The position numbers and the translations under genes were made by a program. This document shows, in pieces, positions 1 through 47,520 of a DNA stretch of 55,169 nucleotides. Origin of the DNA: Raillietiella orientalis (taxonomy: Eukaryota); the NCBI GenBank assembly GCA_036172245.1, contig JAYWIR010000115.1, forward strand, positions 62,001 through 117,169, read 5' to 3'. The notes under the pieces are model-generated. The model saw only the letters and a list, made by a program, of their open reading frames with translations, did no database searches and had not been told where the DNA came from. The stretch's first letter is position 1, and each line of letters opens with the position of its first letter.

Positions 1-193
1 GCCAATCCAGAAACAGGGAAATATCCGAAGAACCTCGGTTGAAAAAGTAGGTGAGCAAGAAGATCGCCATAAAGCGAGGACTTCCAGCTCAAACCCGCTA
101 TCCCTTCCCAAACCGGCAAACCATCAATATAACGTAGGGCTCTCTACGGCGGCTACGAAACCCGTAGCAAGCGGCGGCGCGCCGCGCAAAAAC

Positions 194-874
194 ATGCTGC
201 ATGCAGCCGACCCTCCACGGACTCGGCAAGAGAGGAGCAATCTCCCGACTGCCAAGAAGGTGGCTCCGCTGCCACCTTTGAAAGGCGTGGCGAAAGCGAC
301 GCCCCTAGAGGCGGCAGCGAAAACTCCGGAGGTTTCCGAGACGAACGTCCTGGAAGCGTTCGGAAATCGTGAAGGAGAATGGAAGGTTGTGGAGAGGAGA
401 AAAGAAAAACCTTCCAAGAAGGCTTCGCAACCTCCATCCGTTAGCTCTTTGAAGGCGCAGAACAGCCTCTTAGACAAGAAAACACGCGCGGAGGAAAAAG
501 CCAGCGCCGTCAACGCTTACAATTCCGCCTCTCTGAGCGCCGAGAAGACGATTCCGGTGCGATCGGAAGGATTCAAGGGTACGTCGATCGTGCGAGCATC
601 AAACTCTGTAAAGGAGTCCGATAACGACGCTGAACGACGTGTTACTTGCGCGGGAGCGAGCGTCCGCAGGGCTGAAGCCCTGAGGCATGACACACTCGCC
701 GCGGAACGCCGAGTGCTCGAACCGGAACCCACAGTTTCTGATCCCGGGGTGGTGGACTCGATAACGCGCAGCACGGTGAAGGCCGGTAGCGACCGCTCCC
801 TCCAGCCCGTCGTGCTGCTTACTGCCCGCTCGCCGGGTGAGCCGAGCACCACGGCCTCGCTATCCCAGCCGTGA
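194..874 (+). CDS. ORF1 (gag-like) C-terminal region of B1, partial
   Basis: Ala/Ser/Lys-rich ORF with WKVVERRK motif; its TGA (872-874) overlaps the ORF2 ATG (874-876). Confidence 0.7.
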   Translation: MLHAADPPRTRQERSNLPTAKKVAPLPPLKGVAKATPLEAAAKTPEVSETNVLEAFGNREGEWKVVERRKEKPSKKASQPPSVSSLKAQNSLLDKKTRAEEKASAVNAYNSASLSAEKTIPVRSEGFKGTSIVRASNSVKESDNDAERRVTCAGASVRRAEALRHDTLAAERRVLEPEPTVSDPGVVDSITRSTVKAGSDRSLQPVVLLTARSPGEPSTTASLSQP

Positions 875-1931
875 TGAGGGCAATCGCGTCTTCTCGTCGT
901 GTTGCGGTGGCGTGCTGGAACGGCAACGGTCTCCAACACGACAAGAAGAGGCGACTAGTAGCTAACGCTCTGCGCGCCTTCGACTTGACGCTCCTGCAGG
1001 AGATTCACAGCATCTCCGAAGAGCAGGCTGCCGAAATCGAACGTCGCGCGGGCGGAAGGCTACATTATAGGTGCGGCGTCGCACGTACGTGCGGCGTCGC
1101 TTTCGTTTTACGAAGAACTTCGGCGGGAGCGGTGCCCGGTGTTTGCTTCGATACGGAAGTCCGTGTGGGACAGCTTGAACTCAAGTGGTCCGACTCGATC
1201 GACCTTGTCGTAACGAACGTGTACGCGCTTAACGGTGCTGGATGATGGGCCGAAAGAATTGAGTTCTTCGGTACCGTTCAAAGCCAGTGGCTCACTCGAT
1301 CTCACCCTACTGTGGCCCATCTCATTGCGGGAGACTTTAACGTCCACCTGCTTTCCGAGAATAGCTTCCACAAAAGGGAAAAGTTTCTAGCGGAAGAGAT
1401 GTGCGCGGCCGTGCACGCGTCCAACTTTTTCGCTAGCGACCCTGTTCTGGCGACATCACCGGACCATGTATTCCTCGATGAATACTTGCTCTCTCGAGTG
1501 GGTCCGAGATGTTCCATGCCGTCCGTGCTTTCGGACCACATCAGGCACGAATTCGAGTTGCTCCCGCCAGGCAAGGGGCCTCCAAACTGTGTTTGGAGGA
1601 AGCCAGCAGACTGACTAAGTCACCCGGAGGCGGCGGAGCATCTTCGCCTGTACCTACGCGGCTTCGCCATAAGTGAGCTCGCTGACTGGGACGATCTGAA
1701 CAGATCGGTCCGCGAGTTTTGCTGCCAGTTTCCCTTGCACCAGCTCTCGCGCCGCTTCGGAGAAGGTGGAGGGAACAGCAGAAATTTTCTGCAGGCCCGC
1801 TCCTACTCCAGGCGCGCAGACGTTGGTCGATTATACGAGTACAAAGCCAAGGCTGAGCGCCAGGTCTGGCAGTCTGGAGCTACATTTCTGATCGACGACC
1901 AGGACCGGGAATGCTCGGCACCAGCCAATGT
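874..1931 (+). pseudogene. ORF2 apurinic-like endonuclease domain of B1 (disrupted)
   Basis: ORFs 871-1245, 1312-1614 and 1735-1968 carry consecutive APE motifs; homologous to the less disrupted 51892-52857. Confidence 0.9.
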
Positions 1932-2822
1932 TTGTCACCCGGATATGCCGGGGCATTTACTATTCTAATTTTGTACAAAAATTAGATAATAAAGTCTTTA
2001 AAAAGAAGTTTACTGTGGGGAAACACAGGGTTCTCCCACCTTGCTCGACGTGTCGGTTGCCGGTGCATAGACCGGTTAGGTTCATTTCCGAGGCACATGG
2101 GAAGAGAAAACTAGAACAAAAACAAACAAAAAGACAGATAACGGTGAGGGAAACAGTTATATGGAGAGAGGAATGGGGGCAGGGAAAAAATCACTGGGCG
2201 CCTGGGTCGGTCCTCCGCATCCTGTTGAGGATGCAGTCAAGTTCGGTTTTTATTGTGAAAGGTAGACGCCACCTTGTCGCCGTCTCTAAAGAGATCGTCG
2301 TTTAGTGGATGGCGTCCCTGCATCTTAAGCCTCTTCTCCTGGCGTGCCACCTTTGCACAATGCCGCTCACGCAGCAGAGGACTGCTAGAGACGCAGCGGG
2401 GCGCAGGCCGTCACTCAGAAAGAGGCGACGGAAAATTTCCTTAGGGTCGCCTACTGGAAGATGGAGGATTAAGGCGATTCGACTCCAGAGTCCATCCTGA
2501 GCGACACACTCGAGGGTGAGATGAGGGAAGGTTTCTCTTTCTCCGCACTCGACACAGCGGGCATCCACATTCCCCAGTGTCCAGTGAGACAGGCGTGCTC
2601 TGCTTAACAGTCCTAAGTGCAGAAATAGCAACGCCGTCTCCTGCAACATCAACGGGAGTGTGTTGCAATCCCAACACGCTGGGGGCCACTTCACCTCCTC
2701 CGGAAGTATTGCGACCAGCTCTCCCCAGCGCGCAAGTCCGTGAGGCGGGACGCTCGGGGTGGCAGCGTCCGTTAGCTCCCGAGTCGTCTACGCCTTTAAA
2801 GGTTTTTTGCGGCCTCGGAAAT
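1932..2822 (-). mobile_element. Family A copy A1, 5'-truncated (C-terminal CCHC + 3' UTR)
   Basis: CVECGERETFPHLTLEC in ORF 2302-2694; 3' stem-loop 1938-1952; flanked by CCAGCCAATGT (1921-1931) and CCAGCCGACGT (2823-2833). Confidence 0.9.
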
Positions 2823-2833
2823 CCAGCCGACGT

Positions 2834-5709
2834 TTGCCACCCGGATATGCCGGGGCATTTATTATTCTGATTTTTTACAAAAATTAGATAATAAAGTCTT
2901 TCAAAAGTTAATTGTGGGAAACACTTGGTTTTCCCACCTTGGTTGACGTGTCTGTTGTCGGTGCATAGACCGGTTAGGTCCATTCCCGAAGCGCATGGGA
3001 AGGGAAAACTAGAACAAAAACAAACAAAAAGAGAGATAACGGGGAGGGAAACAGTTGTATGGAGAAAGGGAGGAAGCAGGGAAGGGATCACTGTGCGCCT
3101 GGGTCGGTCCTCCGCATCCTGTTAAGGATGCAGTCAAGTTCTGCTTTTACTGTGAAAGGTAGACGCCACCTTGTCGCCGTCTCTAAAAAGATCGTCGTCC
3201 AGTGGATGGCGTCCCTGCATCTTGGGACTCTTCTTCTGGCGTGCCACCTTTGCACAATGCCGCGCACGCAGCAGAGGACTGCTAGAGACGCAGCGGAGCG
3301 CAGGCCGTCACGCAGAAAGAGGCGACGGTAAATTTCCTTAGGGTCGCTTTCTGGAAGATGGAGGATTGGGGCGATTCGACTCCAGAGTCCATCCAGAACG
3401 ACACACTCGAGGGTGAGATGCGGGAAGGTTTCTCTTTCTCCGCACTCGACACAGCGGGCATCCACATTCTTCAGTGTCCAGTGAGACAGGCGTGCTCTGC
3501 TTAACAGTCCCAGTGCAGAAATAGCAATGCCGTCTCCTGCCACTTGAACAAAAGTGTGCCGCAATCCCAACACGCTGGGGGCCACTTCACCTCCTCCGGA
3601 GGTACGGCGAGCAGCTCTTTCCAGCGCGCAAGTCCGTGAGGCTGGACGCCCGGGGTGGCAGCGTCCGTGAGCTCTCGAGTCGTCTATGCCTTTAAAGGTT
3701 TTTTTCTGCCTCGGATGAGGCAGGACACTTCCCACGATGCCAGCTCGTTGCTGCTCCTAGTGTTATTCAGGGAGGACAGAACGGGGGCAAGGGGACTGAA
3801 AGAAGCCCACAGAAACTTCCGGGGCGTGTTGATAATCTCCTGCAGCGGCTGTCGAGCGTACGGTCCTCGTCGTAGGCAGTTTTATTCCGCCTCGCTCGTG
3901 CCGTTGATCTTAGCCCACGCGGAAGCTGACTCCTGAAGCCAGGCAGTGCAGTTCGCGGGGATGCAGGAGATCCAGGTATTCTCCCTCATCAGGGCGACCA
4001 TCTGGCGCAAATCGGGGCCACAGTTGGAGAGGCTGCGCTGGTAGGCCACGAGGATCGAGGACAATCCTTCGCAGCCAGTCGCTCTTCTGGCAAGGAGCCG
4101 TGCAGGATCGCACCATGGCGTCATCCATAAGCTAGCCGCAAGGGCTAACTTCCGAAGTGTTGTCTGTAGTTGGATGCGCTCTAACGTAAGGAGGCTCAAG
4201 CCAGAATCCCTGCGTGGAGCGCACAAGTCTTTCTATCGAACTCGCGACCTCGCTGTGCCCCAAAGGCCAGTCCTCAGAAGGGCTTTGGTCCGTCTCTGTA
4301 TGATGGGAGGGGCGGGGCAAACAAAAAGTAAGGGGCGAAGGAGGGGGGCCAGGAACGCGTTCCACACCGCGGCCCGCTTCTGCAAGTAAAACTTGCCGTT
4401 CCGGAACGGGCCGATCGCCAACTCCACCTTTTGGAGACGGTCGGACCAGCCTTCTGCAACGTAGAAGTCCCCTAACGGAACGCCAAGGTACTTGAAGCAC
4501 CTGCCCGTCGGGATTTCCAAGCGGATCCAGTACGGCCGTCCGGCCCACGCCGTATTGTTTAAAAGTAGTGGTGATGCTAAAACGATGGAAGATTTCTTTC
4601 TGTTCACCTCGAGGCCCGTCCCGCGGCGCAGCAACTCAAAGAAATCTTCGAGCGCCGACGCCTGGGTGGACCCGGGGAGCAGGAGCAGAAGGTCGTCGGC
4701 GTAGGCCGACACGGCAGACGTGCCGGGACACGACCTTGGCAGGGTTGCCAGAGTCTCCCTGTATGCCCTCAGCACCAGCTCGAAGTAGATGCTGAAGAGC
4801 GTGGGGCTGAGACTGTCACCCTGCCTTATGCCACGCCGAACCGATACGTCGTACACGTGCCGGCCGCTAAAAGAGATGTTTATTTGAGCGAAGCGCCAGC
4901 AGGAGCGCAGGTGAGCCCGGAAGACGGCCGGGAATCCCAAGCGTTCCAGGAGCTCCAGAAGGAGTTCCTGGTCGACGCAATCGAACGCTTTACGCAGATC
5001 GACTGCGACCGCAAGGGCTCCTGGCGCGGCTCTTCCATGAAGGGCGTCCCCTTCTTGTTCTGAGGAGAATCCGGGATTCTCTTGACCTCCCTGCTCTTCG
5101 CTTTGTTGCAACTGCCACCATGTACTGGCGAGGAACAGGTTGGCCTCCATGCTTCGTCTGGGAACAGCGTATGTCTGCTGCGGACTCACCACGGATTCCG
5201 CTACCCGTCCCAGTCGCTCAGCCCAAATCGTGGCAAGCAACTTCGCATCCGCATTCACTACTGTGATGGGACGCCAGTTGCCTACGTTGCGATTGTCTCC
5301 TCCTTTCGGCAGGAGACGTACTCTAGCTGACCGGAACGATTTGGGGACGTCCCCTTGTTCTCGGATCAGCATGCAAACCCGATGCATCAAAGGGGCCAGC
5401 TCCGCCACGAAGCCTTGTTAAAATTCTGCGGGCAGACCGTCTTCCCCTGGTGCTTTCCTCTTTCTGAGCTTTCCGATGGCGGAGACGATCTCCGTCATCG
5501 AGAAAGGCTCCTCAAGTTGATGTGTCTGCTCCTCCTGTAGCGCGGGGGTGCCTTGCGGCAGCAAGCGCTGCGCCTCGACGCGCTCTGTTGTTCTACGCGC
5601 GTACAAGGAGGAGTAATAGTCCCGCAGGATTCGGTTTATTCTCGCCGGAGCTGAGCATTCCTGGCTTTGGGCGTCCAGCAAGCTGCCCGACCCGGATTTC
5701 CAGGCGCCG
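2834..5709 (-). mobile_element. Family A copy A2, 3' portion (linker, RT, CCHC, 3' UTR)
   Basis: KAPGEDG, NWRPITVVNADAKL, DLRKAFD, GIRQGDSLSP, YADD, KYLGV motifs; 3' stem-loop 2840-2854. Confidence 0.92.
4233..5408 (-). pseudogene. Non-LTR reverse transcriptase domain of A2
   Basis: 391-aa ORF with all core RT motifs including YADD; in-frame stop just upstream, near 5418. Confidence 0.92.
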
Positions 5710-5815
5710 TAAATAGAGATTGTGCTCCATTGCCATCTTTGAAGCCATCCGCGTTTTTGAACGTGGGCACTTTCGATGGCTCCGACACGCTCGTCATGGA
5801 CGCTGCGTTTGCCGT
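5710..5815 (+). mobile_element. Left stub of plus-strand host B2 (APE-RT linker fragment)
   Basis: Reads GTFDGSDTLVMDAA and continues after A3 as SAVQRVVKRNY (6571-6606), homologous to PADVQRIVRRYY. Confidence 0.55.
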
Positions 5816-6570
5816 TTGCCATTTGCCACCCGGATATGCCGGGGCATATATTATTCTAATTTTCTAGAAAAATTAGATAATAAAGTCTTTCAAAAGTTAA
5901 TTGTGGGAAACACTTGGTTTTCCCACCTTGGTTGACGTGTCTGTTGCCGGTGCATAGACCGGTTAGGTCCATTCCCGAGGCGCATGGGAAGGGAAAACTA
6001 GAACAAAAACAAACAAAAAGAGAGATAACAAGGAGGGAAACAGTTGTATGGAGAGAGGGAGGAAGCAGGGAAGGGATCACTGTGCGCCTGGGTCGGTCCT
6101 CCGCATCCTGTTCAGGATGCAGTCAAGTTCTGTTTTAACTCTGAAAGGTAGACGCCAGCTTGTCGCCGTCTCTAAAGAGATCGTCGTCCAGTGGATGGCG
6201 TCCCTGCATCTTGGGCCTCTTCTTCTGGCGTGCCACCTTTGCACAATGCCGCGCACGCAGCAGAGGACTGCTAGAGACGCAGCGGGGCGCAGGCCGTCAC
6301 GGTAAATTTCCTTAGGGTCGCCTACTGGAAGGTGGAGGATTGGGGCGATTCGACTCCAGAGTCCATCCAGGGCGACACACTCGAGGGTGAGATGCAAGAA
6401 GGTTTCTCTCTCTCCGCACTCCACACAGCAGGCATCCACATTTCCCAGTGTCCAGTGAGACAGGCGTGCTCTGCTTAACAGTCCCCAGTGCAGAAATAGC
6501 AACGCCGTCTCCTGCCACTTCAACGGAAGTGTGCCGCAATCCCAACACGCTGGGGGCCACTTCACCTCCT
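5816..6570 (-). mobile_element. Family A copy A3, 5'-truncated
   Basis: Near-identical to the A1/A2 3' ends; stem-loop 5829-5843; flanked by GCGTTTGCCGT (5805-5815) and GCGTCCGCCGT (6571-6581). Confidence 0.9.
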
Positions 6571-8790
6571 GCGTCCGCCGTACAGCGCGTAGTCAAGCGC
6601 AACTACGAGAGCTTTTGGAACGTCTGGGTCTTCCGGCATCCCTGTTGGCGTCCTTGCTTTCCTGCAGGCGCCACGGGATTACATCCATTGTTTTCAGTGG
6701 CTGTCACGTGTACGACGTGCCGGTTAGGCGAGGAATTAGGCAGGGCGATAGCTTGAAGCCGCTGCTCTTTAGCATCTATTTTGAAATGGTTCTAGAGGCT
6801 TACAGGCTGACGCTGGCCAACCTGCCGAGCTCCTCTTCAGGTACGCCGGCCGTGGCAGCCTATACCAACGACCTGCTTCTTCTGTTGCCCATGTCCACCC
6901 CGGCGGCGTCGCTTGAAGATTTCTTTGAGTTGATCCGTCGCGGTGCGGGCGTGAGCGTCAACACAAGCAAGAGCCTGGTTGTTCCGGTTGGAGCGACGTG
7001 GGAGGGGCAGTCCGACTGGATCCGCCTGGGGATCCCCACGGGCAGGTATCTAAGGTACCTTGGCGTGCCGTTAAGCGACTTCTGCATCTCAGAAGCGTGG
7101 TCAGACTGCCTTCGGAAGGCAGAGCGTGCACTTGGCCCGTTCTCAGGAGGCGAGTTCGTCTTGCCGGAACGAGCCAGCATCTGGAACACCTTCGTTGCTT
7201 CCCTCCTCCGTCCTCAGTTTTTTGTTTGTCCACCCCCCCAGGAAGTCAAAGTCTGGGCGCAGCACCTTCTACGCAAAGCGTTGTGGGGCGCTGCAAGATC
7301 CCGTGTTAGACTTAAATTCTTGGTGGCGCCGCGTCAGGATGCAGGCTTGGGCATCCTCGACTGAAACAGTATGGACCTGCAGGTGCAGTTTCGCATTCTG
7401 CGTCTCTGTGCTTAGCTGTAGTGTACGCCGTGGTGCTTACCCGTACGCTTTCTACTGAGGCGTTGTACGGGAAGCGAGGGACTGCTTTCGTTGCTGCCCC
7501 ATTTTCGGCACATCAGAATAGAGTTTGCCTTTCCGCTGAGGCAGCTTTCCTCACTGTTGGAAGCCCAATGCTGTATCTCCTGCCGCTGTATGAACATTAA
7601 TGCATGACGGCAGGAATCTTTCTCATCGTGGGCAGCTTCCGAAGGAACGCGCATGGAAGATCTTCGACGCCTGCAACTTCTCTTCAGTCATCCAATGGAC
7701 GATATCATGCAGGACAAGAAGTCGAATCGTCTGCGCACAATACTACTCGCCTCAGCGCTGTTTGCCCAGAGGGAAAGCAACGACGGTTGCCTACCGGAGG
7801 AATGGGAGTTCTCCTGCAAAATCGCGGGAGACAGTAAGCTCCTCGGCAGCTGGACGACAAAGGAGCTGGTGCAAGCCGCCACTCCTCGGAATCGGGCGAT
7901 GGGCCTGCTTCGGTGGAGGGAACATTTAAGTGTGCCCCCCGGAGAGATAGTCGTTCCCCCCGTTTGTTTGTACAGCTCCGTGTTCCCCCTAAAGTGGAAA
8001 CAAGATGTGCTGCTCTTTTTACATTGCGCATTACACTGTAATAGGCATCGAAGCATCGTTTCCGGGGGAGCTGCTTTGCCAAACTGTTCAAGGTGCCAAG
8101 AGATCGAGTCTTTTCCGCACCTTTAGCTGGACTGCGGTGACCTCCGGGAACTGTGGCGAAGGCTCACTTCGGCCACCATGTCACAAGGAGGCACTGCCAT
8201 TGATGTGCTGCGGCGCTTCTTCAGCAGAAATGGACTTTCGGTTGGCGCGATTGTCGCAACCATGTGTTGCGTTCGCGCCATCGTGAAGGCCCGCTAAGCC
8301 CTGGAGTTGTCATTGCAGCGAAGGGAGGCTCACCTGCTTGCAGCTCAATTCATGGAGAAGGCTTCAAGGTGGTCTCATCTTCGTGACAAGGTGAATGAGG
8401 ACATCAGCGGCATACATCGCTGGTTTACACACCTTTGAGAACGGCGAAATCCGGTGACCTCTGCGACCTCTCGCCCACCCATACTCCGTCCCCATTCGCT
8501 CGGTAAAATTTCCGGTTCCCATGCTTTTATGCCCGTGTCTTCCAGAGCGATCCCAAAGACCCTTATCCCGTCCTCCTTATCCATTGTTTTTATTTTATTT
8601 TGGTTTCTTTGTGTTCCCCGCCCTTCCCACACCGTTCGCAAAACTGTTACTCTGGCCTGCGTGCCAGCAATATTCTCTTCATTCTTGTTCAGTCGTCGGT
8701 TGGGAGTTTGGTTCCCAACTGGTTTATTTTATATAATTGTTTTTTGTTTATGTTATATGGAATAAACGCCTTGGCGTGACCGGGTGAGAA
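6571..8790 (+). mobile_element. Family B copy B2 (internally deleted; RT C-half, CCHC, 3' UTR)
   Basis: GIRQGDSL, YTNDLLL, RYLGV, GLGI, CSRCQEIESFPHL; collinear with about 10300-12474; AATAAA at 8761 followed by the stem-loop. Confidence 0.9.
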
Positions 8791-9606
8791 ATCCTCCGGG
8801 CTTGATCTGCGGAGATCACGTGGATCTCCTGCAGCAGCACCAGGTCGAAGGATGCCAAGGTGGCGGCCACGTCACGCGTCTTGCCGTCGTTGCTTAGCCC
8901 GTTGACGTTCCAGCAGGCGATCAGCAGACGACGATTGGAGGCGATTCCCGGCTTTATTGCTGGTAAGGTGTCGCTGCAGCACCTGCCGCGGGGCAAATGT
9001 TGGGGATGTCCATGGGGACGGAGGCCTCTTCAGGCACCAGATGCACCTGTTCGGCTTCCACCCCCTCCATCCCCTTCGTGTGGGAGCGTGGGATTCTCTC
9101 TGGCAACGGATCCCGGAAGTTTACCACGCTCAGCGCACCATCGCTGAAGGAAGCCATCTCTTCCCCTTCGTCGGGGAGACGATCATCTTGGGCTTTGGGG
9201 ACTTTCGTCCAGTTCTTTTGCGAGGTGCGCTGCAGATATAAGCTGAGCTTCCGGCCTCTACCTCAAGGCCGGAAGTAAGGGACTTCTGAGGGGAGGCCGG
9301 ACGCCTGACGGCCTTCTTTCCAGCCTTCGGGGCAACCGGCTGCAAAGAGGCAGCCAGTTCCTCCGCGACGCGCTCGAAGGCGACGTCCTCAAGCGTGGGC
9401 TCGATGACGGACGCCGCCGCCTCGCTCCACTCCTTGTTGACTTCGTCAACGGAGGGTTGAGCGGAGGCAGCAGGGAGTTCTTTAGCGCCGCATTCGTCGA
9501 TGGCGGAAATCCGCTCTACGTCGACGCAGCAGCTTTTGTTTTTTTCGCAGCGCGGAGCGGTTTCGCTCCTATCCGCCACGTTCTTTTCCTTTTTAGGGAA
9601 GTTTTT
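8791..9606 (-). mobile_element. 5' portion of A2 (ORF1 C-terminus + APE N-terminus)
   Basis: IACWNVNG...LLQEIHVISADQARRI cut at 8791. The right end abuts CCAGCCGACGT (9607-9617), identical to 2823-2833, which links it to A2. Confidence 0.8.
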
Positions 9607-12474
9607 CCAGCCGACGTGCAGCGGATAGTCAGGCGCTATTACTCTTCTCTGTATGCAGAGGCACCAACGGCACGCAGTCTCTCCGAGCTGCTTCTGCCGA
9701 TTCATGCACCTGTTGTAGACGAGGAGGAACGCGCGCGTCTCAATGAGCCTTTCACGGCAGAGGAAATTTCTTCGGCCATCTCGCGGCTTAAGAGACGAAA
9801 AGCGCCAGGCAAGGATGGACTCCCCACAGAATTCTTCCAGAGCTTAACGGCGGAGCTCATCCCCCTGGTTCTTCAACTCTCATCGCTGATGCGAGACGCG
9901 GGCGATATCCCCGCCTCGTTTCGCTCACCGAAGGTGCGTCTCCTGCCGATAGGCGGAGATTCGCGTCTACTGAACAATTGGCGTGCGATCCCCTTAGTGA
10001 ATTCGGACGTCATGTTGTTCTCGAAACTTTGGGTGGCGCGGATGGGGAGGATCGCGGAGTCTTTGGTAAGTCCGGAGCCGACCTACGCTGTTCCTGGGCG
10101 CTCCATGGACGCGAACCTCTTACTCCTCCGCACATGGCTGCAATTGCAGCATCGCGTGGCGAAGGATCGTCGTGCGGAAGCAACGCCTTCGATCTCTGAC
10201 CGACGGAGGCGCGGGTCACAAAGGGAAACCCCGGGAGCCTTGGCGGTTGCAGTCGATTTGCACAAACCTTTCGATTGCGTGAACCAAAAGCTTCTTCTTG
10301 AGCTCTTGGAACGTTTGGGCCTACCGGCATCCCTGTTGGCGTACTTGAGCTCTTTGCTGGCGCCACGGGATAACATCCATTGTTTTCAGTTGCTGTCACG
10401 TGTACGGCGTGCCAGTTTGGCGAGGAATTAGGCAGCGCGATAGCTTAAGCCCGCTGCTCTTTGGCATCTACTTTGAAATGGTGCTGGAGGCTTAGAGGCT
10501 GACGCTAGCCAACCTGCCGAACTCCTGTCCAGGTACGCCGGCAGCGGCAGCCTATGCCGACGACCTGCTTCTCCTGTTGCCCATGTCCACCCCGGCGGCG
10601 TCGCTTAAGATTTCTTTGAGTTGATCCGTCGCGGTGCGGGCGTGAGCGTCAACAGGAGCAAGAGCATGGTTGTTCCGTTTGGAACGACGTGGGAGTGGCA
10701 GTCCGACTGGATCTGCCTGGGGATCCCCACGGGCAGGTACCTCAGGTACCTTGCCGTGCCGTTGGGCGACTTTTGCATCTCAGAAGCGTGGTCGGACTGC
10801 CTTCGGAAGGCAGAGGGTGCACTTGGCCCGTTCTCAGGAGGAGAGATCGTCTTGCCGGAACGGGCAGCATCTGGAACACCTTCTTTACTCCCCTCCTCCG
10901 CCCCCTGTTTTTTGTTTGTCCACCCCCCCAGGAAGTCAAAGTCTGGATGCAGCGCCTCCTACGCAAAACGTTGTGGGGCTCTGCAAGATCCCGCGCAAGA
11001 CTTAAAGACTTGGTGGCGCCGCGTCAGGATGCAGGTTTGGGCATCCTAGACTTAAAAAGCATGGAGCTGAAGGTGCAGTTTCGAATGCTGCGGCTCTGTG
11101 CCAAGCTGTGGTCTACGCCGTGCTGCTTATCCGCACGACTTATACTAAGGCGATGCACGGGAAGCGAGGGACTGCTTGCGTTGCTGCCCCACATTCGGCA
11201 CATCAGAATAGGGTTTGGCTTCCCGCTGAGGCAGCTGTCCTCACTGCTGGAATCCCAATGCTGGATCTCCTGCCGCCCCATCAACATTAATGCATGGCGG
11301 CAGGAATCTTTTTCATCGTAAACAGCTTTAAGGGAACGCGTTCGGAAGATCTTCGGCGCCTGCGACTTTTCCTCAGTCATCCAATGGACGAAGTCATGCA
11401 GCACAAGAAGATGTCGGATCGTCTGGCCGCCACACCGCTCGCCGCAGCGCTGTCTGCCCTCAGGGCAAGCAACGACAGTTGCCTACCGGCGAAATGGGAG
11501 TTCTCCTGCTCAATAGCGGGAGTCATTAAGCTCCTCGGCTACTGGACGACAAAGGAACTGGTGGAAACTGCTACTCCTCGCAATCAGGTGAAGGGCCTGC
11601 TTCGGTGGAGTGAACATTTAAGTGTACCTCCCGAAGAGATAGTGGTCCCCTCTGTTTGTTTGGACAGCTCTGTGTTCCCCCTAAAGTGGAAACAAGATGT
11701 GCTGCTCTTTTTACATTGCGCATTACACTGTAATAGGCAGCGAAGCATCGTTTCCGGGGGAGCTACTCCGCCAAATTGTTTGAGGTGCGGTGAGATCGAG
11801 ACTTTTCCGCACCTCATGATGGACTGCGGTGACCTCCGTGAACTGTGGCGAAGGCTGATTACAGCCATCCTGCCGCAGGAAGGCACTGCCATTGATGCTC
11901 TGCGGCGCTTCTTCAAGAGGAATGGATTTTCGTTAGGCGCGATTGTCGCAACCATGTGTTGCATTCGCGCCATCGTTAAGGCCCGCTACGCACTGGAGTT
12001 GTCAGCGCAGCGAAGGGAGGCTCACCGGTTTGCAGCAGAATCCATGAGAAACGCTGCTAAGTGGTCTCATCTTCGTAACGAGGTCAAAGAGGACATCGTC
12101 GGCATCCACCGCCGGATTACAGACTTTTAGGAACGGCTTTATCCGGTGACCACTACGTCCTGAAGCCTACCCATACCCGTTCCTTGCTCGCTCTGCTAAA
12201 ATACCGGTGCGATTACTATAATCCCGGAGAGAACCAGAGCTATCCCAAAGACCCTTGTCCCCGCGTCAACCGTGGATTTCTTCTTTTGTTTTTGTTTGAT
12301 TGTTTTCTCAGTTCCCTCAAACCGTTCTGTGTAATTCTGGCCTGCGTGCCAGCAGTATTCTCTTGACACTTGTGCCGTCGTCGGCTGGGGGCATGGTACC
12401 CAACTGGTTTATTTTATATATTTATTTCTATTGTATTTATATGAAATAAACGCCCCGGCGTGACCGGGTGAGAA
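9607..12474 (+). mobile_element. Family B copy B1, 3' portion (linker, RT, CCHC, 3' UTR)
   Basis: KAPGKDG, DLHKPFD, YADD (gcc tat gcc gac gac near 10550), CLRCGEIETFPHLMMDC; AATAAA 12445-12450 and stem-loop 12454-12468. Confidence 0.9.
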
Positions 12475-12925
12475 ATCTCTTGCGCTTGTTCTGCAGAGAT
12501 CACATGGATCTCTTGCATCAGCACAATGTCGTAGGACTCTAGCAGGGCAGCCATGTCTCGTCTCCTGCCGGCGTCTGTCATGCCGTTCACGTTCCAAAAG
12601 GCGATGCGCAGTCGACGGCGGGAGGAGATTCCCGCCATTACTGCTGGGAAGATTAAGGTGTGGGATAGCCCGCCTCTTGCGAGGCGGGCGGGATGTCCAT
12701 GAGGGTTTCGGCCTTCTCAGGCACCTGTTCGGCCTCCATCCCCTCCATCCCCTCCGTGTCCGTGCGTGGGAGTCTCTCGTGCGACGGGTCCCGCGAGTTT
12801 CCCACGCTCATGGCATCACACACGTCGGGGTGGTCATGGGTAAAAGGAGAAGGTCATCGGCATAGGCCGCCACAGACGGCGTACCTGGACAAGACCTCGG
12901 CAGGTTGGCCAGCGTCAGCCGGTAC
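12475..12925 (-). mobile_element. C-type element fragment (APE N-terminus + ORF1 tail) fused to a short RT (YADD) fragment
   Basis: IAFWNVNG...LMQEIHVISAEQAQEI cut at 12475; homologous to 49150-49480; 12825-12925 encodes YRLTLANL...AYADDLLLL. Confidence 0.8.
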
Positions 12926-13165
12926 GTGCAGACGTGTGTCCATGTTGCTCCCGTAGGTGACAGTTTAGTTGTGAAGTTCGTGAAATCTTCTGCAAGCATT
13001 TACGTTTATATTGTATTCCGTGTATCTTACGGAGTTATTTTACTTGTTCACAAGGAATCGTAGTGATACAGTGATTATTGTAGAGAATGAAAGGTCTCTT
13101 CTTTGGCCGTCCGCATCTGCTAGCGTCTAACTAGAAAGCTGTTGTTTGGCCAAGGTAAGACTTAC

Positions 13166-21950: not shown

Positions 21951-23802
21951 GGCATCGTTCCGGATTTTGCAACTCTAGGTGAGACTGCGGATCACTCACT
22001 GGTGTCTTCTTTTAATTTTCAGGGGTTCTCTGCCTTTAGTCAGGTATCAGTCTTTCGCGGGAACTTTCTGAGTTTCTGAAACAATTCCAAGTAATGTATG
22101 ACAATAGCAAAGGAAGAAAATCATGAGCACACGATGTAAAGAGGCATTTCCTAGATTGCGTTCCCTAATACCCACGGTGAGCATTTCTTTATTTCGACTC
22201 ATAAATCAAGAAGCTATTCAATGACTAATGTTTTAGATCCAGAAGTATTAATTATCTGTTGAGAAGTCCATGAATGCGGACAGTTTAGTGCATTCCTCTC
22301 CTTTTCGTAGTTCCACTCTTTCAAGTGATGTCTAATTGGTCAAGTGGTCAACTAGCAAACGGAAGGCCAGCCAACAAGAAATTGATGTTTGACAAAGGAA
22401 CTGCTTCCTATTATCCTCTATCTTCTTCTGCTATCAACTCGAAATTTCTCTACCGATAATCACACAGCCTTCCCTTCCCATTTCTCAGTGTGGAGTCCCA
22501 TCACCGATCTACCTATTACAACAAAACCAATATGAAAAAAACTATTAGAAATTTCGTTCTTTAGAAAGGAAATGAACGAAATCCATAAAATCGGAAGTGC
22601 AGAGCAAAATAAGAAAGAAAAATGTAAAATCATGGGAAACTGAAAATGAGAAATGAAATGAAAAGGAAGCCATACTCATTCAAGTTTTAAGTAATACCTT
22701 CATAAAGGAGATCGATAATGTGAGAAAATACATTCCAAGCATGTTTCATTTCAGCTGACTGATTTCGTTCACAATCACCTCCAATATTTCTCAACTTCAT
22801 TTCAGCCTGATGGCAATGAAAAGTCACTTTTATAACCTTTCACGGCTGCTGGGCAGTCCCACCGACCCCACTAAAAGAAACACCAATGAAAGTCCCTTCA
22901 AAGTACACAACACTTGTCTGTCCTCAAGTAAATTAAGAAATGAATGAAGAATTCGAAGGCTAATTCGAAGGCTCGGTGGTGGTTACTGAAAATCAGTTGC
23001 ACCCAAATCAAAGTCGAGCTACGCTGCTGCGGGAATTTCAGCCACTACTCAAGGAAGAGTACGTCTTGAGGGATGCTGACCGACTGTCAATTGCAAAGAA
23101 GCAAATGTGAGGGCATGCTAGAGAGCCTTCTTTTCATTGGTTTCTTACCACTGGTGGAAGAAGAAACACAGTCAAGAATCAAGAGCGAACCTATTTTATC
23201 CATAAAAAAATCAAACCCTATCATAGGAAACATTCTGTCCCACGGAGGTGTCATTCAGAATATCGCTGGTGCATTCATAAGGACTTGTAATCTGCAGAGC
23301 AGTGATTAGGTTTCATAAAAAGGGAAGACAGAAGTACCGAATCTTGCATTTGTAATGTGTGCAGGTATTTATGCTGATAAAATCGAGAGGTGCCTCAGTT
23401 TATATAGGCAATTCTAAGGTCTGAAACTGTAACATAAATCAGCAAAACTTCGAAAAAACTTTGTTCTCATGGAGTAGCCCAAATATTCATAAACTTTGAA
23501 TCGAAATCATTGCCTGAATTTCGTATGTGCAGAAAATTGATGCATATGCAAAATTGCAATCCCATAAGAACTGTGGATAATAATCTGCACTTTCCTCGGG
23601 TAAATGTAAATTTTGTAAGCAATATGTAAACATATAAAAATGTTGTTCCTATTATGTTGTAAGCACTTGAAATCGAGCACGGTTTGAACTTTGGACAGTT
23701 TGTCACCAGTGGTTCTCAGTTGAAAATCGAAGCGCGGGAGGTTGGCACGCTGTTGGGGGAATTTGCTGGGAATTTACCGGCAAAAGGTGAAAGGGCGTGA
23801 AA

Positions 23803-24099
23803 ATGAACTCAAAAGGCAGTGAACCGAAAGTTCTTGTAATGTGTACCGGAAGTGTGGCAAGCATAAAAGTCCCGGAACTGGTGCGGGCTCTTGAGGAACG
23901 TTTGTCAGCTCATGTAAAAGTCGTTGCCACCGTGAACGCAGCAAAGTTTTTCTGCCTGGATGGCATCTATACAGATGATTTGGAATGGAAAACTTGGGAG
24001 AAGAGAGGAGATCCGATTCTGCACATTGATCTGCGCAACTGGTGCGACGTGGGGGTAATTGCACCCTTGGATGCAAACACTCTGGGAAAGATAGCAAAC
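23803..24099 (+). CDS. PPCDC: Phosphopantothenoylcysteine decarboxylase (HFCD flavoprotein), exon 1
   Basis: CTGSVASIK, W..RGDPILHIDLRNW (catalytic His) and IAPLDANTLGKIAN; GTAAGT donor at 24100. Confidence 0.93.
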
Positions 24100-27000
24100 G
24101 TAAGTGGAAAATCAGGTTCGTGAAACGCCCATTAATCTCATTAAATGAAATTTCCGAAAAAACCTATTTGAATAGTTTACTTCATGGCAAAATTCGACAG
24201 CCCTTGGATGTTATTTTTATTATCAATTCTACTTACCGTAGTGTACAGTTTGAATGTGTTCATTTACTCATTTCTGAACTACATAGCCATTTGTTTTACC
24301 TCAATGCGTTTCAACTCTGGGTCTGATCAGCTTTATATGGTATCTCCTATATCTACTGCCGCATTGTTAACCAAATAACAAGCCTACATCTTAGGAGAAG
24401 ACTGTTTTAATTTGGAAAAGATGAACAGATTTTTGCACCGACATTCAAAAGTAAATTTGTATTGCTAATTGGTGACCGTTTTTTTCTTTGCGCATTCATT
24501 TTTTGATCTAGGTTTCTTATGTCAACTTCATTATCTAGACATAACTGGTTTTCAGTTTGCTTTCAAGTGCAGAGCTTGTGTAGGATGTTCCATTAGTTGG
24601 CCCTTAAAGGTCATGTCGTAGGGTAGTGGTCAGACATGAAGGAATTCGCAAGGTTTTCTCCTTGATGCACTCTGAGCAAGAAAACTGATTAGCAAAGAGA
24701 AAAGAAATTTACCAACCAGATACCTGAAAACAGTTTTATCAGAGATGGGGTCATAGAAGGAGGCAGTGCTTGGAAAACACACTAACTTATTAACTGCTAA
24801 AGTATGTCAATTGGAAAGCAGCTTTCATGGATGTTTGTTTGTTATCATTTCTAGTGAATCTTAATAAAAATAATGCACCCTTTTTAGTGATGCGTAATAT
24901 AATGCAGATAAAGAAAGATAAAGGGTTAAAGAGACTGATCTTTTATTGTGAGAGATGAAAATTTATCATCATCACTATATCAGGACTGTTCTCATCATAA
25001 AAATTCAAGTCCATGTATAAGGTATTATCAGAAGTGTTTTGTTGAAGACTTATTGCACATTACTATGCAAACAATTTTGCAACAGATGGTCAATTGAATT
25101 CCTGGTCAGCCTACATTCATCTGGGTGTGGCACTGGTAGTGGTTAAAACTGGGACAAATGATAGTTGACTTCCGGATCCTTCCAGGAATCATGGAGTGGG
25201 GAGTTCCCCTCTGGTTGTGAAGGGGCAGACCCCCTATTGCTGGGGGACCTTCTGCATCATACTGATGGTGTAGGTGTGTTGCCACCACCTCTCCAGAGAC
25301 TGCAGAGAAGTGAGCCACTCCCTTCGGGGAAGCTGCATCCCTTCTGGGTTCTCTTCAGAGGAGTAAAAACAGGAGTGGATTCCTTGTGGGGGATTCTTCC
25401 AGAGCAGAAATTCCAGGAGTGCATCCTTTCCTGCATTCCCTTCAGAGAAGAAAGAATGGAGGGGACCCCCCTGGGGGTCTTCCAGAGAGAATAAGGAAGG
25501 AGATTCCTTTTCGGATTCTCCTTTGGAGACAACCAGGGTGGAGGTGATCTCCATTTCCGAGGATCCCTCCCCAGGCATGAGAGGAACAGGCTCCGAGTTC
25601 TCCCTGGATTCATAGGGTGGACCCCTACCAGGGCACCCATCTTGAAGCATTACCCACCCTCGGGTGGTGTGGAACCATGTCAAAGAACTGTGAAAACAGA
25701 AAAGAAGGATTTCCATCAAAAAAAAAAACTAAAGCTAAATTTGAAAATTGTTTTCAATTTGGAGCTTTAGGAGTCCTAGGACAACTTTATCAGAACTGCC
25801 AGATGAATGCAGAATGAGTTGAATGAAGTGAAGATGAATTGGAAGGAAATGATCGAATCTTCTTAGAAAGAAAAATTAAGGATCGTGTAGACATTTATGC
25901 ATTCTCTACAGAGTTTCTTTATGTCATGAAAAAGCAAGATCCATTGCTAGCTATGATTTGACAAATCCCATCCAAGAGGTTGGTCTCGCCTTTGTGATTT
26001 CATTTGCTAAGAAGAAAGAAACCTTTAGCTTATGAAAACTAAACATCATATGATATTTGTGTAGTATTTTAAAATTAAACGATGAAACAATGAAAGGTGC
26101 AGTTATGAAAACAAGTTGACCTGAATTTATGTTTTCATAAATTTGCACCCAACTTAGTAATCAACTCAAAGCAAATAGCAAAAAGTGTCAGCGCACCTGA
26201 TACAGTGAAACGAAAAAAAGAAAAAGTCAGAAATCTAAATATTGTTCTACTAATTAACATCTTTAAAGGACATGTGACTGTTTTTATCGCAAACTGTCAA
26301 GTAACCAAGAAGCTGAAAGCTATACACCAGGAAACAATTAAACGTGGAACCATCAGACATTTCTCTTGTAGATAGGTGAGTGTTTATCATCCTTGAAATA
26401 CCTTTTTTGCTTTTAAAATACATATAGTTTTCAAGGATGCTGCAAGGAAACAGTGTAGGAGCTTGTGCAGTGTTTGCTTATAGTTGGTTATTGAAAATAA
26501 GGAATAACTTCTTATGGGTCTTTAATTCAGGCATCTTGAAATTCAGATATTGTTTTGATTATTTTGTTTCTCTCACATGTCTTCAGTCTGAGTGAAAGTA
26601 TGCACACATGTGTGATGCTATTGATGTGAAATGCAAGTCTGTGTTCTGGTACTTGTATTGAAGTTATTTACAAATTCATGCATGGTAATTTATAAATGTA
26701 AGCTATGGATTAATGGTACTGTTGCATTGTCTGCTTTGAGTATGGAGAGAATCTTACTAATGTGAGTGTTGAACAAAGCGTACTTGTTCCAGTGATGAGT
26801 AATTGGGTTTATTTTCAAATTCCTCTGCAGAATGTGAAGTATTTCTCCATGTTTATGAGAAATAGTGAGTGCCAACGAAGCAGCCAGTTCAATATTGAAC
26901 TAGTTAAAAAATTATATGGGAACTCTTATTAATGTGTGGGTATTTCATGTTACAAAAAAAAAGCAAAGACGTTTCGGGAATTCAATATAATTTTCCTCGT

Positions 27001-30000: not shown

Positions 30001-31110
30001 TTGAGGGCTGATTCGACTGATGGTTTCAAGCTGCAAAACAAGTTTTCGTAGTTAGCAGGGAAATCTAAGTCAGTGCTATTGGGATAGAGACGGTGAAATT
30101 CTACAGGAAAAGGCAATCGCATGAATTGATTTGTGGATTAAAGAAACCACAAATAAATAAGATTCAAACGAAAACGTATTGAATGCAATGGATATGCAAG
30201 TCAGGTATATTGCTGTGAAATTCTTATAAAAGTGCTTTTATTTTCATGCTTTAATGGGTATATTATACTGCTTATTTTTGCAATAATACTAGTAATACCA
30301 TATTACAAAGCAACAGCCGTATAGGAATTGAAACGTTGCAGTAGTATTTCTGTTTTGTATAAAGTACAACATGCTGAATGTCAAGCGGCAATGCTGCATC
30401 ATATTTCATGTCACGAATTTATGTTGTATGTTTTAATTATAATTAAGCATCAGCACATTGATAAATTGACACGGAAGGCGCTTAGTAATGGAATGCAAGT
30501 AATTTTTCTTATCCCAATTAGTTGCTCACTTAGTTTTGCCAACTTGTGAGCATTTTATATATCCGAATTTTACTTTGAGGATGAATTTGGCCATTCATCA
30601 AACGACAGTGTGTTTATATGTTGTAGGTATTGCTTTTGTAAGACATGGTCAGTTCCTTGAATTGTTTTGTAAATTTATTCAATTCTTGTTGTGGGCTTTT
30701 CAATTTTTTTAAAAAATGTTTTTTTTGACACCAACAACATTTTTTCTTTTACTCCGGAATATCATTAATAACCCCCTAATTGATAGACTTGTTTTGTTTT
30801 GCATTCGTTCTGAATTCCCTAATTGACTTCACGATGTTCTCTAAGTATTTCTGAAAGCTTTCAGAAGTTTTAATGTTTAATACAGTATGGTAGCAATAAC
30901 GCCGTTTCATGATTTCGTCAGCATGTAGCGGGTTTTTACGACAACGGATTAGCATTGGTGAAAAGAGTGGCTCCTTAGCTTCTTGCGCTTAGAGCTTTTA
31001 AACATTTCTGCGCGAGCATCGATCGATTGAATTTCAATTACAAATACCGAACAGTGTACTTGCATATAATTGGTTCTACAGTCGAATTTGATAATTTTTT
31101 GTATTTTAAG

Positions 31111-31380
31111 GGTTTATGTGACAATTTAGTCACTTCTGTAGTTCGGGCATGGGACATGCAAAAGCCATTGATGTTTTGTCCTGCGATGAATACTCATATG
31201 TTTCTCCATCCTATAACATCAGTACAAATTTCAACATTGAAAAGCTTTGGTTTTCACGAAATACCTTGTTGCATTAAAACTTTGATGTGTGGAGAAACAG
31301 GAATTGGAGCAATGGCCGAAATAGATTCTATTATTGATTGCGTAACAAATATGCTGAGCATTATGGCATCAAGCTCTTGA
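31111..31380 (+). CDS. PPCDC: Phosphopantothenoylcysteine decarboxylase, exon 2
   Basis: TTTTAAG acceptor ending 31110; phase-0 join KIAN|GLCDNL; PAMNTHM and LMCGETGIGAM (catalytic Cys); total 188 aa. Confidence 0.93.
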   Translation, partial: GLCDNLVTSVVRAWDMQKPLMFCPAMNTHMFLHPITSVQISTLKSFGFHEIPCCIKTLMCGETGIGAMAEIDSIIDCVTNMLSIMASSS

Positions 31381-31409: not shown

Positions 31410-32054
31410 GTATCAAAATCTGAGTTCTGTTCTGTACTAATGTATGTAATGTATAATAGAATTTAGGGTATGAGAGTGCCCAGAGAGTTTACAGATGTAA
31501 TTTGAAATGCAAATAGTATTGCTGAAATCTTCGTTGCTGATGACGTATTCGTCGTTCTCAATACTTAACAGCAGCGAGACCAAGGCACGCCTCCGCCTCG
31601 ACGGCCACTGAGAACAAGGACAGCTTTCAGTAAGTGTGGGAGGTATGCCTCTTGCACGTAGCTTGAAAAACGCTATCAGAATGGCAAAAGTATACAAGTG
31701 CTTTTGTGCAAGTCCTGACTGTTATTGGTAATCAATAGCCTAAGGGACGCAGAGCTGCCATTTCAGTGCACGCGAACTAGCAACTCTGAGTTGAGTTGAG
31801 TTGAGTTGCCCTCAGTATGGAGTTCGCATCATCACCTCTTGTATTCGTCTGCGTATAGCGTATTTGTACGCTAACATTGGAGAAAAGAGTGACTCATTAG
31901 GCAGCTTCCTGCGCTCTGTAGAGCTTTTGTTGCTTCAAGGCATTCCCTACAAGTTTGAAGGGCAAAAGTAAAGTATTACATATAACACTTAATTTTCGGA
32001 GCGACACTACACGCACGAACACTTGTAGTCAGCATGACAACGCATCTTTGACAG

Positions 32055-33130
32055 TTTTTCACCCGGATTTGCCGGGACATTTATTAAAAAATGTCTCGAA
32101 ATTTTATAATATAGTCGTTATTTTATGACTATGGTAGTAGAACACTCGATTCTACCACGCGCGGAGGATTTTTCATGAACCGGAACGCAAACCGGCGAGA
32201 TCTGCTCCCGCGTTGAAGGAGAAGGGAAAACAAAGCAAAAATAAACAAAAAATTCAAAACAGTGGGAGAGCAATGATTCTTGGGAAGGGGAGAGAAAGGA
32301 AGGGATCACCGGTCGCCCGAAGTGCATCCATGTATCCTGTTGCGGTTGCTTAGAAGTGCTGTTAGTATGTTGGGGAGTCAGGCCTATCGAGTAGTGGCCT
32401 CCAAGATTTTCACCCAGTTGATGGCATCCCTGCTGTTTAGGCCTCTATTCGCGTTTCACCTCGACACAATTTCACTTAGACAACAGAGAAGTGCTAGAGA
32501 CACGGCAGGGGGCTTCACTCATGAGGAAGTGCTAGAAAATGTTTTTAGGGTGGTCTACCGGGATTTTCAGGATCGACGAGAGTGGATCCCAAAGTGCTCG
32601 GAGGGCAACTCTGTCTATTAGGAGATACGGGAAGGTTTCCCTTTCTCCGCACTCTGCACAATGTGCATCCATATTCCCAAGTGTTCAGTGGGACAGGCGT
32701 GCTCTGCACGGGATTCCTTAGTGCATCAATAGCAACGCCATCTCTTGCCACTTCAGGGGAAGGGCGCCACTGTCGCAACACTGGGGGTCACTTCATCTCT
32801 TGCGGAGGTATTGTGAGCAGCTCACCGCCCAGCGTCTGAGTCGTTTAGGCAGGACATTCGGGGTCAAAGCGTACTCTAGCTCCCATCTTTCCTCAGAGCT
32901 GTCCCTCTTAAGAGAGGACAGCTCTGAGGAAAGGTGAGTGAACGAAGGCCACAGCAATTTGCATGGTTTGTACACGACTCCCGCAATGGATGGCGAGCGT
33001 ACATTTCTTTTCGGAGGCAGATGTGTAACACCTCTCTCGAGCCACTGATCCTTCTCCATGCCGAAACTCACTCCTGAAGCCAGGCAGGGCCCTTCCTGGG
33101 GAGGCAGGACATCCAGTTGTCATCCGACAC
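32055..33130 (-). mobile_element. Diverged A-related element F, 3' portion
   Basis: Stem-loop 32062-32076 plus AATAAA; about 32310-32830 is homologous to the A C-terminus (gggacaggcgtgctctgc, CAECGERETFP). Confidence 0.75.
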
Positions 33131-39999: not shown

Positions 40000-40698
40000 T
40001 TCTCCATGGTGTTGCACGCCGTGGCAAGTTCTCAAGAGAGGCGCGGAACCATCTTTACCGGGTTCATGCGCCTCCACAATGCGTGCACCGTGGCGAACCC
40101 CTCCAATGAAACAACAGCGTCGCTGTCGGCGATTTTCAGTCGAAAGGCCGAGAGTTGGACCATGAACAACTGGTCAAGGGTCGAGGGGACAACCTCCTTA
40201 CCCCTTATTTTCACCGGGGTTCGGAGCAGGCGCTGAACGAGGACTGCACCCTTGCAGTGCACCTCCCAATGCCCGAGCGCGCCCACCGCCATTAAAGCCA
40301 TGAGGTCGTCCTCGCGGACCCCGAAGCGTTCCAGCTCGCTCCAGAGCTGGTCACAGGTCACGTCAGAGAACATGACACTAACCTTGTAAGACAGCGCGGT
40401 CTTGTAGCCTTGAGCTACGTATGCCAGGAGCTGTGAGTCACAGCTGGGGCGCTCCGTTAGCCGCCGCTGCTAAGACAGCGGCGGCAATACTCGGTGGAGG
40501 CGAAGGAAGAGCAGTAAAGTCTCCATTCTCCTCCGAAGAGGGAGGTGCAGGGCAGGGGGATTCCTCCACATCCATTTGAACAGGCGTAGACTTCTCTTTT
40601 TTCCGAAAATTGAACCACGCCGCAAAGGAACAACCGGAAAAAGAACTCCAAAGCCGGGGCGCAAGAATATACGTCCGACAATGAGGGAAGGTCGGTTG
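40000..40698 (-). mobile_element. Element G: 5' UTR + ORF1 N-terminus
   Basis: MDVEE...AAANGAP, GHWEVHCK, ATVHALWR homologous to B3 ORF1; GGACGTA at 40676-40670. Confidence 0.8.
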
Positions 40699-42481: not shown

Positions 42482-42482
42482 A

Positions 42483-47000: not shown

Positions 47001-47520
47001 TGCGACCCCTTCCCGAGACCTCGGTGGGGACGGACGTGTTTTTCCTTCGCTCCCGAGAGAGTCGAATGGAAGGCGCTTTTTTTCTTGGTGCGTTTTGTGT
47101 GGAACATCGTTGGTGTCCGATTGCATCCTTGACTCAGGACACAACGATGGAGGTAGGAGTGGGGAGGCTTGCCCAGCCCCACAGCCTACTTCATAAGGGG
47201 TATCATCCCAGGAATCGCTCTCTTTGCCCAAGGTGAGGAGCTGGAGCGCCATGGTGTCCGCACCTAGAGCGGAAGCCATGGCCGAGATTGAAGCCTACAA
47301 GGCAGCGGGATATAAGCCCTCGCTGATATACCAGGTAGGCAACCTTTTAATGGGCGAACTGCACGCGCATTTACGAAGGCGCTGCAGAACGCCAATATTT
47401 TGGAGAAGGATCTTGACGGCCTCTCCGTGCTTAGCTGGTGTCAGCGCGTCGAGGCCGTCTGTAAAGACATTAGCTTGACGCAAAGTCTGATCACCACCGT
47501 GCTGAACATGGACGGGCGCA
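47001..47520 (+). mobile_element. Element E2: 5' UTR + ORF1 N-terminus
   Basis: GGACGTG at 47032; RSWSAMV...EIEAYKAAGYKPSLIYQV homologous to B3 ELQAHAAHGYKPALCYPV. Confidence 0.65.

Follow-up and report, generated by a model that had tools for sequence, protein, structure and literature searches.

Long interspersed nuclear elements (LINEs) with target specificity are known for ribosomal DNA (rDNA), small nuclear RNA genes, microsatellites, telomeres, DNA transposons and long terminal repeat (LTR) elements, and fixed targeting of other transposons by LINEs is a known behaviour. According to Kojima (2015; PMC4494074), many Tx1-clade LINEs are target-specific, several of them for other transposons: Tx1L of Xenopus inserts into Tx1D, a piggyBac-type element, Tx1-Mar enters Mariner-N4_AMi at two positions, each in a fixed orientation (at ~240 in the opposite direction), Tx1-8_Crp and Tx1-4_AMi insert into LTR retrotransposons, and Tx1-9_AMi into Harbinger. 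The criterion applied there was that the target sequence is present in >20% of flanks genome-wide (PMC4494074). R1 and R2 elements in 28S rDNA are the subject of further papers (PMC1919474, PMC5035012, PMC4370867). The stretch analyzed here (the window) comprises 55,169 nt of Raillietiella orientalis (assembly GCA_036172245.1, contig JAYWIR010000115.1, positions 62,001 to 117,169, forward strand). Within it, two 3′ ends of a LINE family named B lie at the same nucleotide (site X) of the apurinic/apyrimidinic endonuclease (APE) coding sequence of two other LINE families, represented by host fragments A and C. The explanation that we hold to be probable is that L1/Tx1-like LINEs, by means of endonucleases that are sequence-specific, integrate at fixed sites within other LINE families, and that this may run both ways.

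The locus resembles the Tx1-clade systems in having an APE-type LINE at a fixed insertion point and in a fixed orientation within another multicopy mobile element, and in its arrays of copies flanked by copies and then by target, with variable 5′ ends. It differs in that the target is an autonomous LINE, hit in the endonuclease-coding sequence of open reading frame (ORF) 2, ~11 codons past the catalytic Glu, and in that two LINE families may target each other. With R1 and R2 it shares a 3′ junction placed precisely, at a single nucleotide of a conserved multicopy target, 5′-truncated copies and inactivation of the target unit, but the target here is a selfish element and not a host gene. The specificity of R1 resides in its APE domain; R2 uses a restriction-like endonuclease, not an APE.

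Zepp of green algae forms nested LINE clusters and is not known to use a defined coding-sequence site when it inserts into its own copies, and in Trypanosoma brucei RIME/ingi insertions lie at one position of the RHS genes, a host gene family. As at this locus, LINEs there pile into each other or into one position of a gene family, and islands of nested, 5′-truncated copies are formed; to our knowledge, neither has been described as cross-targeting the endonuclease gene of a rival element. There is also an analogy with homing endonuclease genes and inteins, in that recognition overlaps codons of a catalytic motif (here LLQEIHVIS) that are hard for the target to change; those systems act by double-strand-break repair into an empty allele, whereas target-primed reverse transcription (TPRT) would operate here. 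A full-text literature search (with Repbase reports and subscription papers outside it) returned no LINE with a fixed target in the endonuclease-coding sequence of another LINE, and no reciprocal targeting between LINE families.

Family B 3′ ends at site X

The two junctions, J1 (8790|8791) and J2 (12474|12475), are formed by the following features.

6562-8790, plus strand: B1, a 5′-truncated member of family B with the C-terminal part of the reverse transcriptase (RT), a zf-RVT-like region and the 3′ untranslated region (UTR), aligned to B2.
8791-9605, minus strand: host fragment A, the C-terminal part of ORF1 and the ~53 first APE codons of ORF2 from another LINE family (Pfam).
9606-12474, plus strand: 3′ portion of B2, from the decamer TCCAGCCGAC of a second site, S (9606-9615), through the RT to ...GGCGTGACCGGGTGAGAA (contig joint in run X1).
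12475-12815, minus strand: host fragment C, from a third LINE family, with the N-terminus of its APE (NGMTDAGR type) and the region upstream (Pfam).

The window contains exactly two copies of the 18-mer GGCGTGACCGGGTGAGAA, 8773-8790 and 12457-12474, each on the plus strand (in shuffled sequence the mean was 0.08 matches, and 0 of 100 shuffles reached two). Each copy closes a B-family 3′ UTR that contains AATAAA and a short hairpin and ends ...GGGTGAGAA; the 3′ end of B1 reads ...AATAAACGCCTTGGCGTGACCGGGTGAGAA, and its 5′ limit is uncertain within 6562-6609. The minus strand reads ...LLQEIHVISADQARR(I) from 8791 and ...LMQEIHVISAEQAQE(I) from 12475. The initial annotation of this DNA had claimed that antisense APE is cut at the same codon at both B 3′ ends, and this was confirmed: at each junction the final base attributed to B completes an Ile codon. 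The precise position of the nick has an uncertainty of up to 2-3 nt (sister families end ...AAAC and B ends ...AAAT), identically in both copies.

The shared flank that had been proposed fits the data, with 25 of the first 33 flank bases identical between the junctions. The two hosts do come from different families, as had been stated (NGLSNDGK vs NGMTDAGR; 72% nucleotide identity over 159 nt). When compared with Pfam Exo_endo_phos (225 positions), stub A covered positions 3-49 and stub C positions 2-50 (E = 2.3e-5 and 3.6e-5), and alignment to the human L1 endonuclease (L1 EN) placed the cut ~11 codons past the catalytic-Glu equivalent of the QE(T/I)H motif. Only the first ~50 of ~225 profile positions remain upstream of the insert, and the partner endonuclease is destroyed, also as first read. 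Both of the B 3′ ends in the window (2/2) are at the same host nucleotide and in the same orientation, antisense to the host. A second random insertion at the same nucleotide and orientation of a ~5-kb host would have odds of roughly 1 in 10,000, as an estimate and not a computed value.

A collapsed or chimeric assembly of the repeat nest might also have made a repeated junction, and the dense nest of 73-93% similar repeats is hard to assemble. However, the junction copies have 8 mismatches in 33 flank bases and diverge by ~15-27% over kilobases, so they are not one sequence used twice, and the two B 3′ regions, together with flank sequence past 12475, are covered by contigs from the related genome of run X1. 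We regard an assembly artefact as very improbable, and site-specific insertion of B is retained as the probable explanation of the identical junctions.

Run X1 (share 0.14), the only related sequencing run found, represents a related genome, with most pieces <90% identical to the window. The X1 joints cited in this study are among the contigs listed, and 388 pieces, 254 loose ends and 14 joints lie outside these. In one X1 contig, whose shorter side has 67 letters, 8749 is connected to 12437; it may or may not pass J2 by 31 letters or more. X1 contig ends that contig-end arithmetic places near 12474 and 12480 hint, though weakly, at a branch point at X there.

Structure of the B element and the nest

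The other half of B2 was located at the left end of the window.

1-1929, plus strand: E1, ORF1 and a complete APE, the 5′ half of the element of B2 (X1 contigs, ORFs).

A 450-nt X1 contig runs through 1702-1919 and then directly into 9606-9836, and a 3755-nt X1 contig contains 863-1104, 1684-1926 and 9704-10116. Because 1919 is joined directly to 9606 in X1 contigs, E1 and B2 are two halves of one B element. E1 ends at the S decamer ACCAGCCAAT (1920-1929), and its other side is beyond the left window edge. The 5′ half of B itself therefore carries an APE of another kind, named 'E-type' (ANALRAFDL, NGLQHDKK/NGLRDADK). The 7.7 kb between E1 and B2 (1930-9605), containing B1 and host A, are inserted material.

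From the outside in, the nest consists of C (minus strand), which was hit at X by the full B2 (plus strand), and of B2, which was hit at S by minus-strand elements. The latter are two copies of a family named D (Dc and Db, see below) and a first element with host A as its 5′ part, and that element was hit at X by B1 (plus strand). Host A is cut at X, and its 5′ end at 9605 adjoins a copy of the S decamer. A third D copy, Da (5822 to ~6561), is probably the 3′ part of the element whose 5′ part is host A.

Independence of the two junctions

An old duplication had been named beforehand as an outcome that would overturn the site-specific reading. It was tested and rejected on the dN/dS of the host stubs, on their contrast in synonymous divergence (dS) with the B copies, and on the nesting of J1 within the element of J2. 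Under this alternative, B inserted once, in the distant past, and the composite later multiplied as dead DNA, whether through segmental or tandem duplication, trans-mobilisation or 3′ transduction. A single blastn high-scoring segment pair (6609-9132 vs 10300-12810, 83%) does cross both junctions, and the B1|A|B2|C layout resembles a tandem repeat. B1 and B2 (10300-12474) were 85% identical overall, with coding parts at 91%, 86% and 86% and the 3′ UTR at 73%; the latter equals the 73% identity of the host stubs between the two loci, as is also expected of a co-inherited composite.

For the host stubs A and C, compared over 53 codons, dS was 0.77, non-synonymous divergence (dN) 0.24 and dN/dS 0.32, whereas the same columns read in two shifted frames gave dN/dS of 1.06 and 1.055 (synonymous vs non-synonymous changes, Fisher P = 0.002). 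The B copies, by contrast, were separated by a dS of 0.15-0.22, with dN/dS of 0.44-0.66. A duplicated dead composite is expected to diverge uniformly and to carry a passenger stub with dN/dS near 1. Instead, identity fell unevenly along the unit from 91% to 73%, and the stub stood at 0.32 vs ~1.06 in the controls. As selection cannot act on the frame of an APE stub that is truncated and antisense, the differences between A and C arose in active, separate lineages before each hit. The B1|A junction moreover sits in a block that has S decamers at its borders and lies within the element of J2, where a duplication would not land; J1 lies inside this insertion block and is therefore not a copy of J2. 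The two events are independent, one junction being nested in the element of the other, and we consider a copied composite unlikely.

Two related candidates were dropped. Transduction of the host stub as a 3′ part of B was rejected by the dN/dS of 0.32, and a 5′ truncation at B2 position 10300 that B1 and an element H seemed to share was abandoned, as H extends further on inspection.

Family D at site S

The material inserted into B2 and a corresponding arrangement at the right end of the window involve three features.

1930-6561, minus strand: D array of three head-to-tail copies inserted at S (Dc 1930-2810, Db 2823-5821, Da 5822-~6561).
49850-52947, plus strand: E2, a second B/E-type 5′ half with ORF1 (weak CCHC-knuckle match) and a full APE (Pfam).
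52948-55169, minus strand: D53, a D-family copy whose 3′ end adjoins E2 at S and which reaches beyond the right window edge (sequence comparison).

Each D copy ends ...CCGGGTGGCAAAC or a variant of it. The S decamer is found three times around the block (1920-1929, 2813-2822 and 9606-9615), the last two being 10/10 identical. The extra copy, TCCAGCCGAC at 2813-2822, stands between the Dc 5′ end (2810) and the Db 3′ end (2823), outside D sequence. From their sequence and placement, the decamers look like target-site duplications of S, a site of B located between its APE and its RT (...ECSAPA-D/N...). E2 is cut at the same site S (decamer TGCAGCCGAA, 52938-52947), so that D 3′ ends stand antisense at S in both E1 (1929|1930) and E2 (52947|52948), and D53 is 93.6% identical to Db. 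Between the APEs of E1 and E2, dS was 0.96 and dN/dS 0.26 (P = 6e-9). E1 and E2 diverged independently under selection, and D at S is a second site-specific LINE-in-LINE system.

The three D copies carry different 5′ truncations, and a head-to-tail array is expected from repeated nicking of a retained half-site. The own sequence of D at S differs from the targeted version, and over the 30 nt that precede the nick, the own APE gene of B has many differences to the A/C site; both are compatible with self-avoidance.

The 5′-most ~115 nt of Db (5703-5821, minus strand) had no other match in the window. An X1 joint (863->5703) sets this stretch directly upstream of an APE start, and Db seems to lack the whole APE domain. 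Neither this joint nor a second one (1171->8818) gave a readable link of host A to family D.

Fragment K and breakage near site X

A third host-type fragment was found next to E2.

49149-49835, minus strand: K, a C-like 5′ fragment without a B insert (sequence comparison).

K is a C-type relative, given a dS of 0.22 to C. Host C is 87.8% identical to K at 49151-49485, and host A is 75% identical to it at 49149-49812. The APE of K ends 13-14 nt before X and is fused directly to the RT region (~49140 and below), which is an internal deletion. This K/H deletion (49083-49160, minus strand) has the joint ...HVISAD|PRKHVHPGA... and starts 13-14 nt upstream of X; it could be a coincidence, a result of the fragility of the palindromic stretch, or the scar of an aborted insertion.

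K bears on the possibility that a fragile or recombination-prone palindromic spot in the APE gene breaks repeatedly, and that B 3′ ends were joined there by repair, template switching or inversion, without a sequence-specific endonuclease. Besides K, which has its break near X and is joined there to its own RT with no B present, this possibility gains from the 7-bp inverted repeat that site X carries (GGAGATC-ACGTG-GATCTCC, the palindromic QEIHVIS-coding stretch) and from the head-to-head pairs A|B2 and K|E2, which resemble inversion products. Yet at both junctions an intact B 3′ end meets the same host base with its very last nucleotide, which is a signature of TPRT and not of random repair, and the parallel D system has apparent 10-nt target duplications. 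Moreover, the inverted stub belongs to another APE family than the E type of B, so it does not come from the same RNA, as twin priming needs. Repeated breakage is judged quite unlikely, and site-specific insertion of B is preferred.

An L1 twin-priming inversion was considered separately and rejected: the APE of B is of the E type (X1 contigs) and the stubs are of the A/C types. The A/C-type stubs share 72-76% nucleotide identity among themselves and are clearly different from E1 and E2.

Proposed mechanism and assessment

In the proposed mechanism, B would be an L1/Tx1-like element with ORF1, an E-type APE, RT, a zinc-finger-like region at the C-terminus and a 3′ end in which ...GGGTGAGAA follows a hairpin. 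The E-type APE of B would nick the sense strand of site X in the APE-coding region of A/C-type LINEs, ~33 nt downstream of the catalytic-Glu codon, after ...GCAGAwCAAGCsCrrGAGGAT/AGAGAT. The freed 3′ OH would then prime reverse transcription of B RNA from its 3′ end, and TPRT from X would produce a precise antisense 3′ junction and a variable 5′ end for every B copy. The host would keep the ~50 of ~225 APE profile positions ahead of the insert, and its endonuclease would be dead. By analogy with Tx1L and R1, specificity would lie in the own endonuclease of B, and the start of reverse transcription may be set by read-through transcripts or by terminal microhomology (AAAT/ATC).

If host A is the 5′ part of family D, as it may be, the targeting would be reciprocal, with D inserting into S of B and B into X of D. 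On this basis we suggest, tentatively and at somewhat less than even confidence, that two or three LINE families live side by side, that each homes into fixed sites in the ORF2 of another, and that alternating nests are thereby formed (C <- B2 <- A/D <- B1). This would be reciprocal, sequence-specific sabotage, in which each family finds a safe harbour in the other and kills it in doing so.

Several points weigh against site-specific insertion of B. Only two B events are available, both in one 55-kb nest, and neither an intact A- or C-type APE gene with its X site empty nor a B 5′ junction with a target duplication is visible in the window. The latter had been given as a caveat from the start, and correctly: the 5′ end of B2 is left of the window and that of B1 is joined to deleted host. 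At this B1 5′ junction, B1 adjoins a D copy and ~3 kb of host are missing. Other D copies at the Da/B1 joint (6551-6575) read CACCTCCTCCGGA, the X flank reads ATCCTCCGGG, and the 8-mer TCCTCCGG is common to the D-copy sequence and the X-site flank at 8792-8799; as a speculation from these sequences, the ~3 kb may have been lost by microhomology joining. K is broken near X without any B, and the region may thus be fragile for other reasons. The selection test on A and C draws on only 53 codons, and the equal 73% identity of B 3′ UTR and host stub suits a co-inherited composite as well. Host A probably belongs to family D, a link drawn from the arrangement only. Finally, a family F, distinct from B by its RT (~73% identity), ends with the same 11-mer CCGGGTGAGAA as B but has an unrelated flank.

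A metagenome scan with AATAAA-N13-CCGGGTGAGAA gave 70 loci, none of which was similar to the window (0/70; blastn E <= 1e-3, tblastx E <= 1e-4); these are chance matches.

With these points taken into account, the claim of the initial annotation that B inserts site-specifically in A/C-type APE genes is supported as the best explanation, and we think it likely to be right. If so, a LINE that targets the catalytic-motif region of the endonuclease gene of another LINE would represent a clear case of direct conflict between transposon and transposon, not between transposon and host, and the more so if the targeting is reciprocal. It would also explain the build-up of LINE islands with alternating orientation, and it would supply natural APE enzymes that recognise long, defined sites, of interest to studies of how endonucleases achieve specificity.

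Domain content and 3′ ends of the LINE families

Both ends of the window (1-13,000 and 40,000-55,169) are nests of related non-LTR retrotransposons, with repeats 73-93% similar to each other. The ORF set of these LINEs comprises ORF1, an APE domain and an RT. ORF1 had a sub-threshold match to a zf-CCHC knuckle (Pfam E = 0.008, under the curated cut-off), and the zf-RVT match was likewise weak and sub-threshold (Pfam E = 0.009). Exo_endo_phos was matched at 51844-52857 in E2, the homologue of E1 (Pfam E = 1.8e-12), and RVT_1 in the RT of the related D family (Pfam E = 5e-25); a Pfam search of the own RT-region ORF of B2 (9247-10431) gave no match. The closest solved structure to the APE was human L1 EN (E = 9e-7). 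When the D-family RT was used in a protein search, the best matches were 23-31% identical, unlabelled L1-like proteins of plants, animals and oomycetes, with no close relatives among them. This domain content fits L1/Tx1-like elements.

The 3′ ends of all LINE families in the window have a common build (AATAAA, a hairpin CCCGG-N5-CCGGG and TGNNAAAY, without poly(A)).

8750-8792 and 12434-12476, plus strand: LINE 3′ ends with the common build (sequence).
1930-1972, 2823-2865, 52948-52991, 40698-40740, 43466-43508 and 32054-32096, minus strand: LINE 3′ ends with the common build (sequence).

The hairpin of B1 keeps its pairing through G-U (CTTGG...CCGGG). The common 3′ hairpin is probably a recognition or entry element for the RT.

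Other features of the window

Four minus-strand elements lie head to tail at 40032-46175: G (46175->43466), D′ (43461->42492), F (42509->40698) and M (below ~40690). Every 3′ end in this chain adjoins the 5′ end of the next element, and the flanks of F and G show no relation to X or S. Element F is 5′-truncated near an RT motif at 42492-42509, where the D′ 3′ end adjoins. A 100-nt RT fragment (12822-12926, minus strand), which ends past the same motif (YADD...PMTTP), adjoins the 5′ end of host C.

Between the nests, two coding exons were identified.

23791-24123 and 30979-31380, plus strand: exons of a phosphopantothenoylcysteine decarboxylase (flavoprotein, PF02441), with a ~7-kb AT-rich intron between them.

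In a protein search with these exons, the best matches were 51-58% identical and came from animals and fungi, which points to an opisthokont without near kin in the protein collection searched. Two LINE remnants were located in or near the intron region, outside the nests. The first is the solitary 3′ end at 32054-32096 (minus strand; ...CCGGGTGAAAAAC), with a flank that has no relation to X or S, and the second is a D-like C-terminal fragment at 32622-32884.

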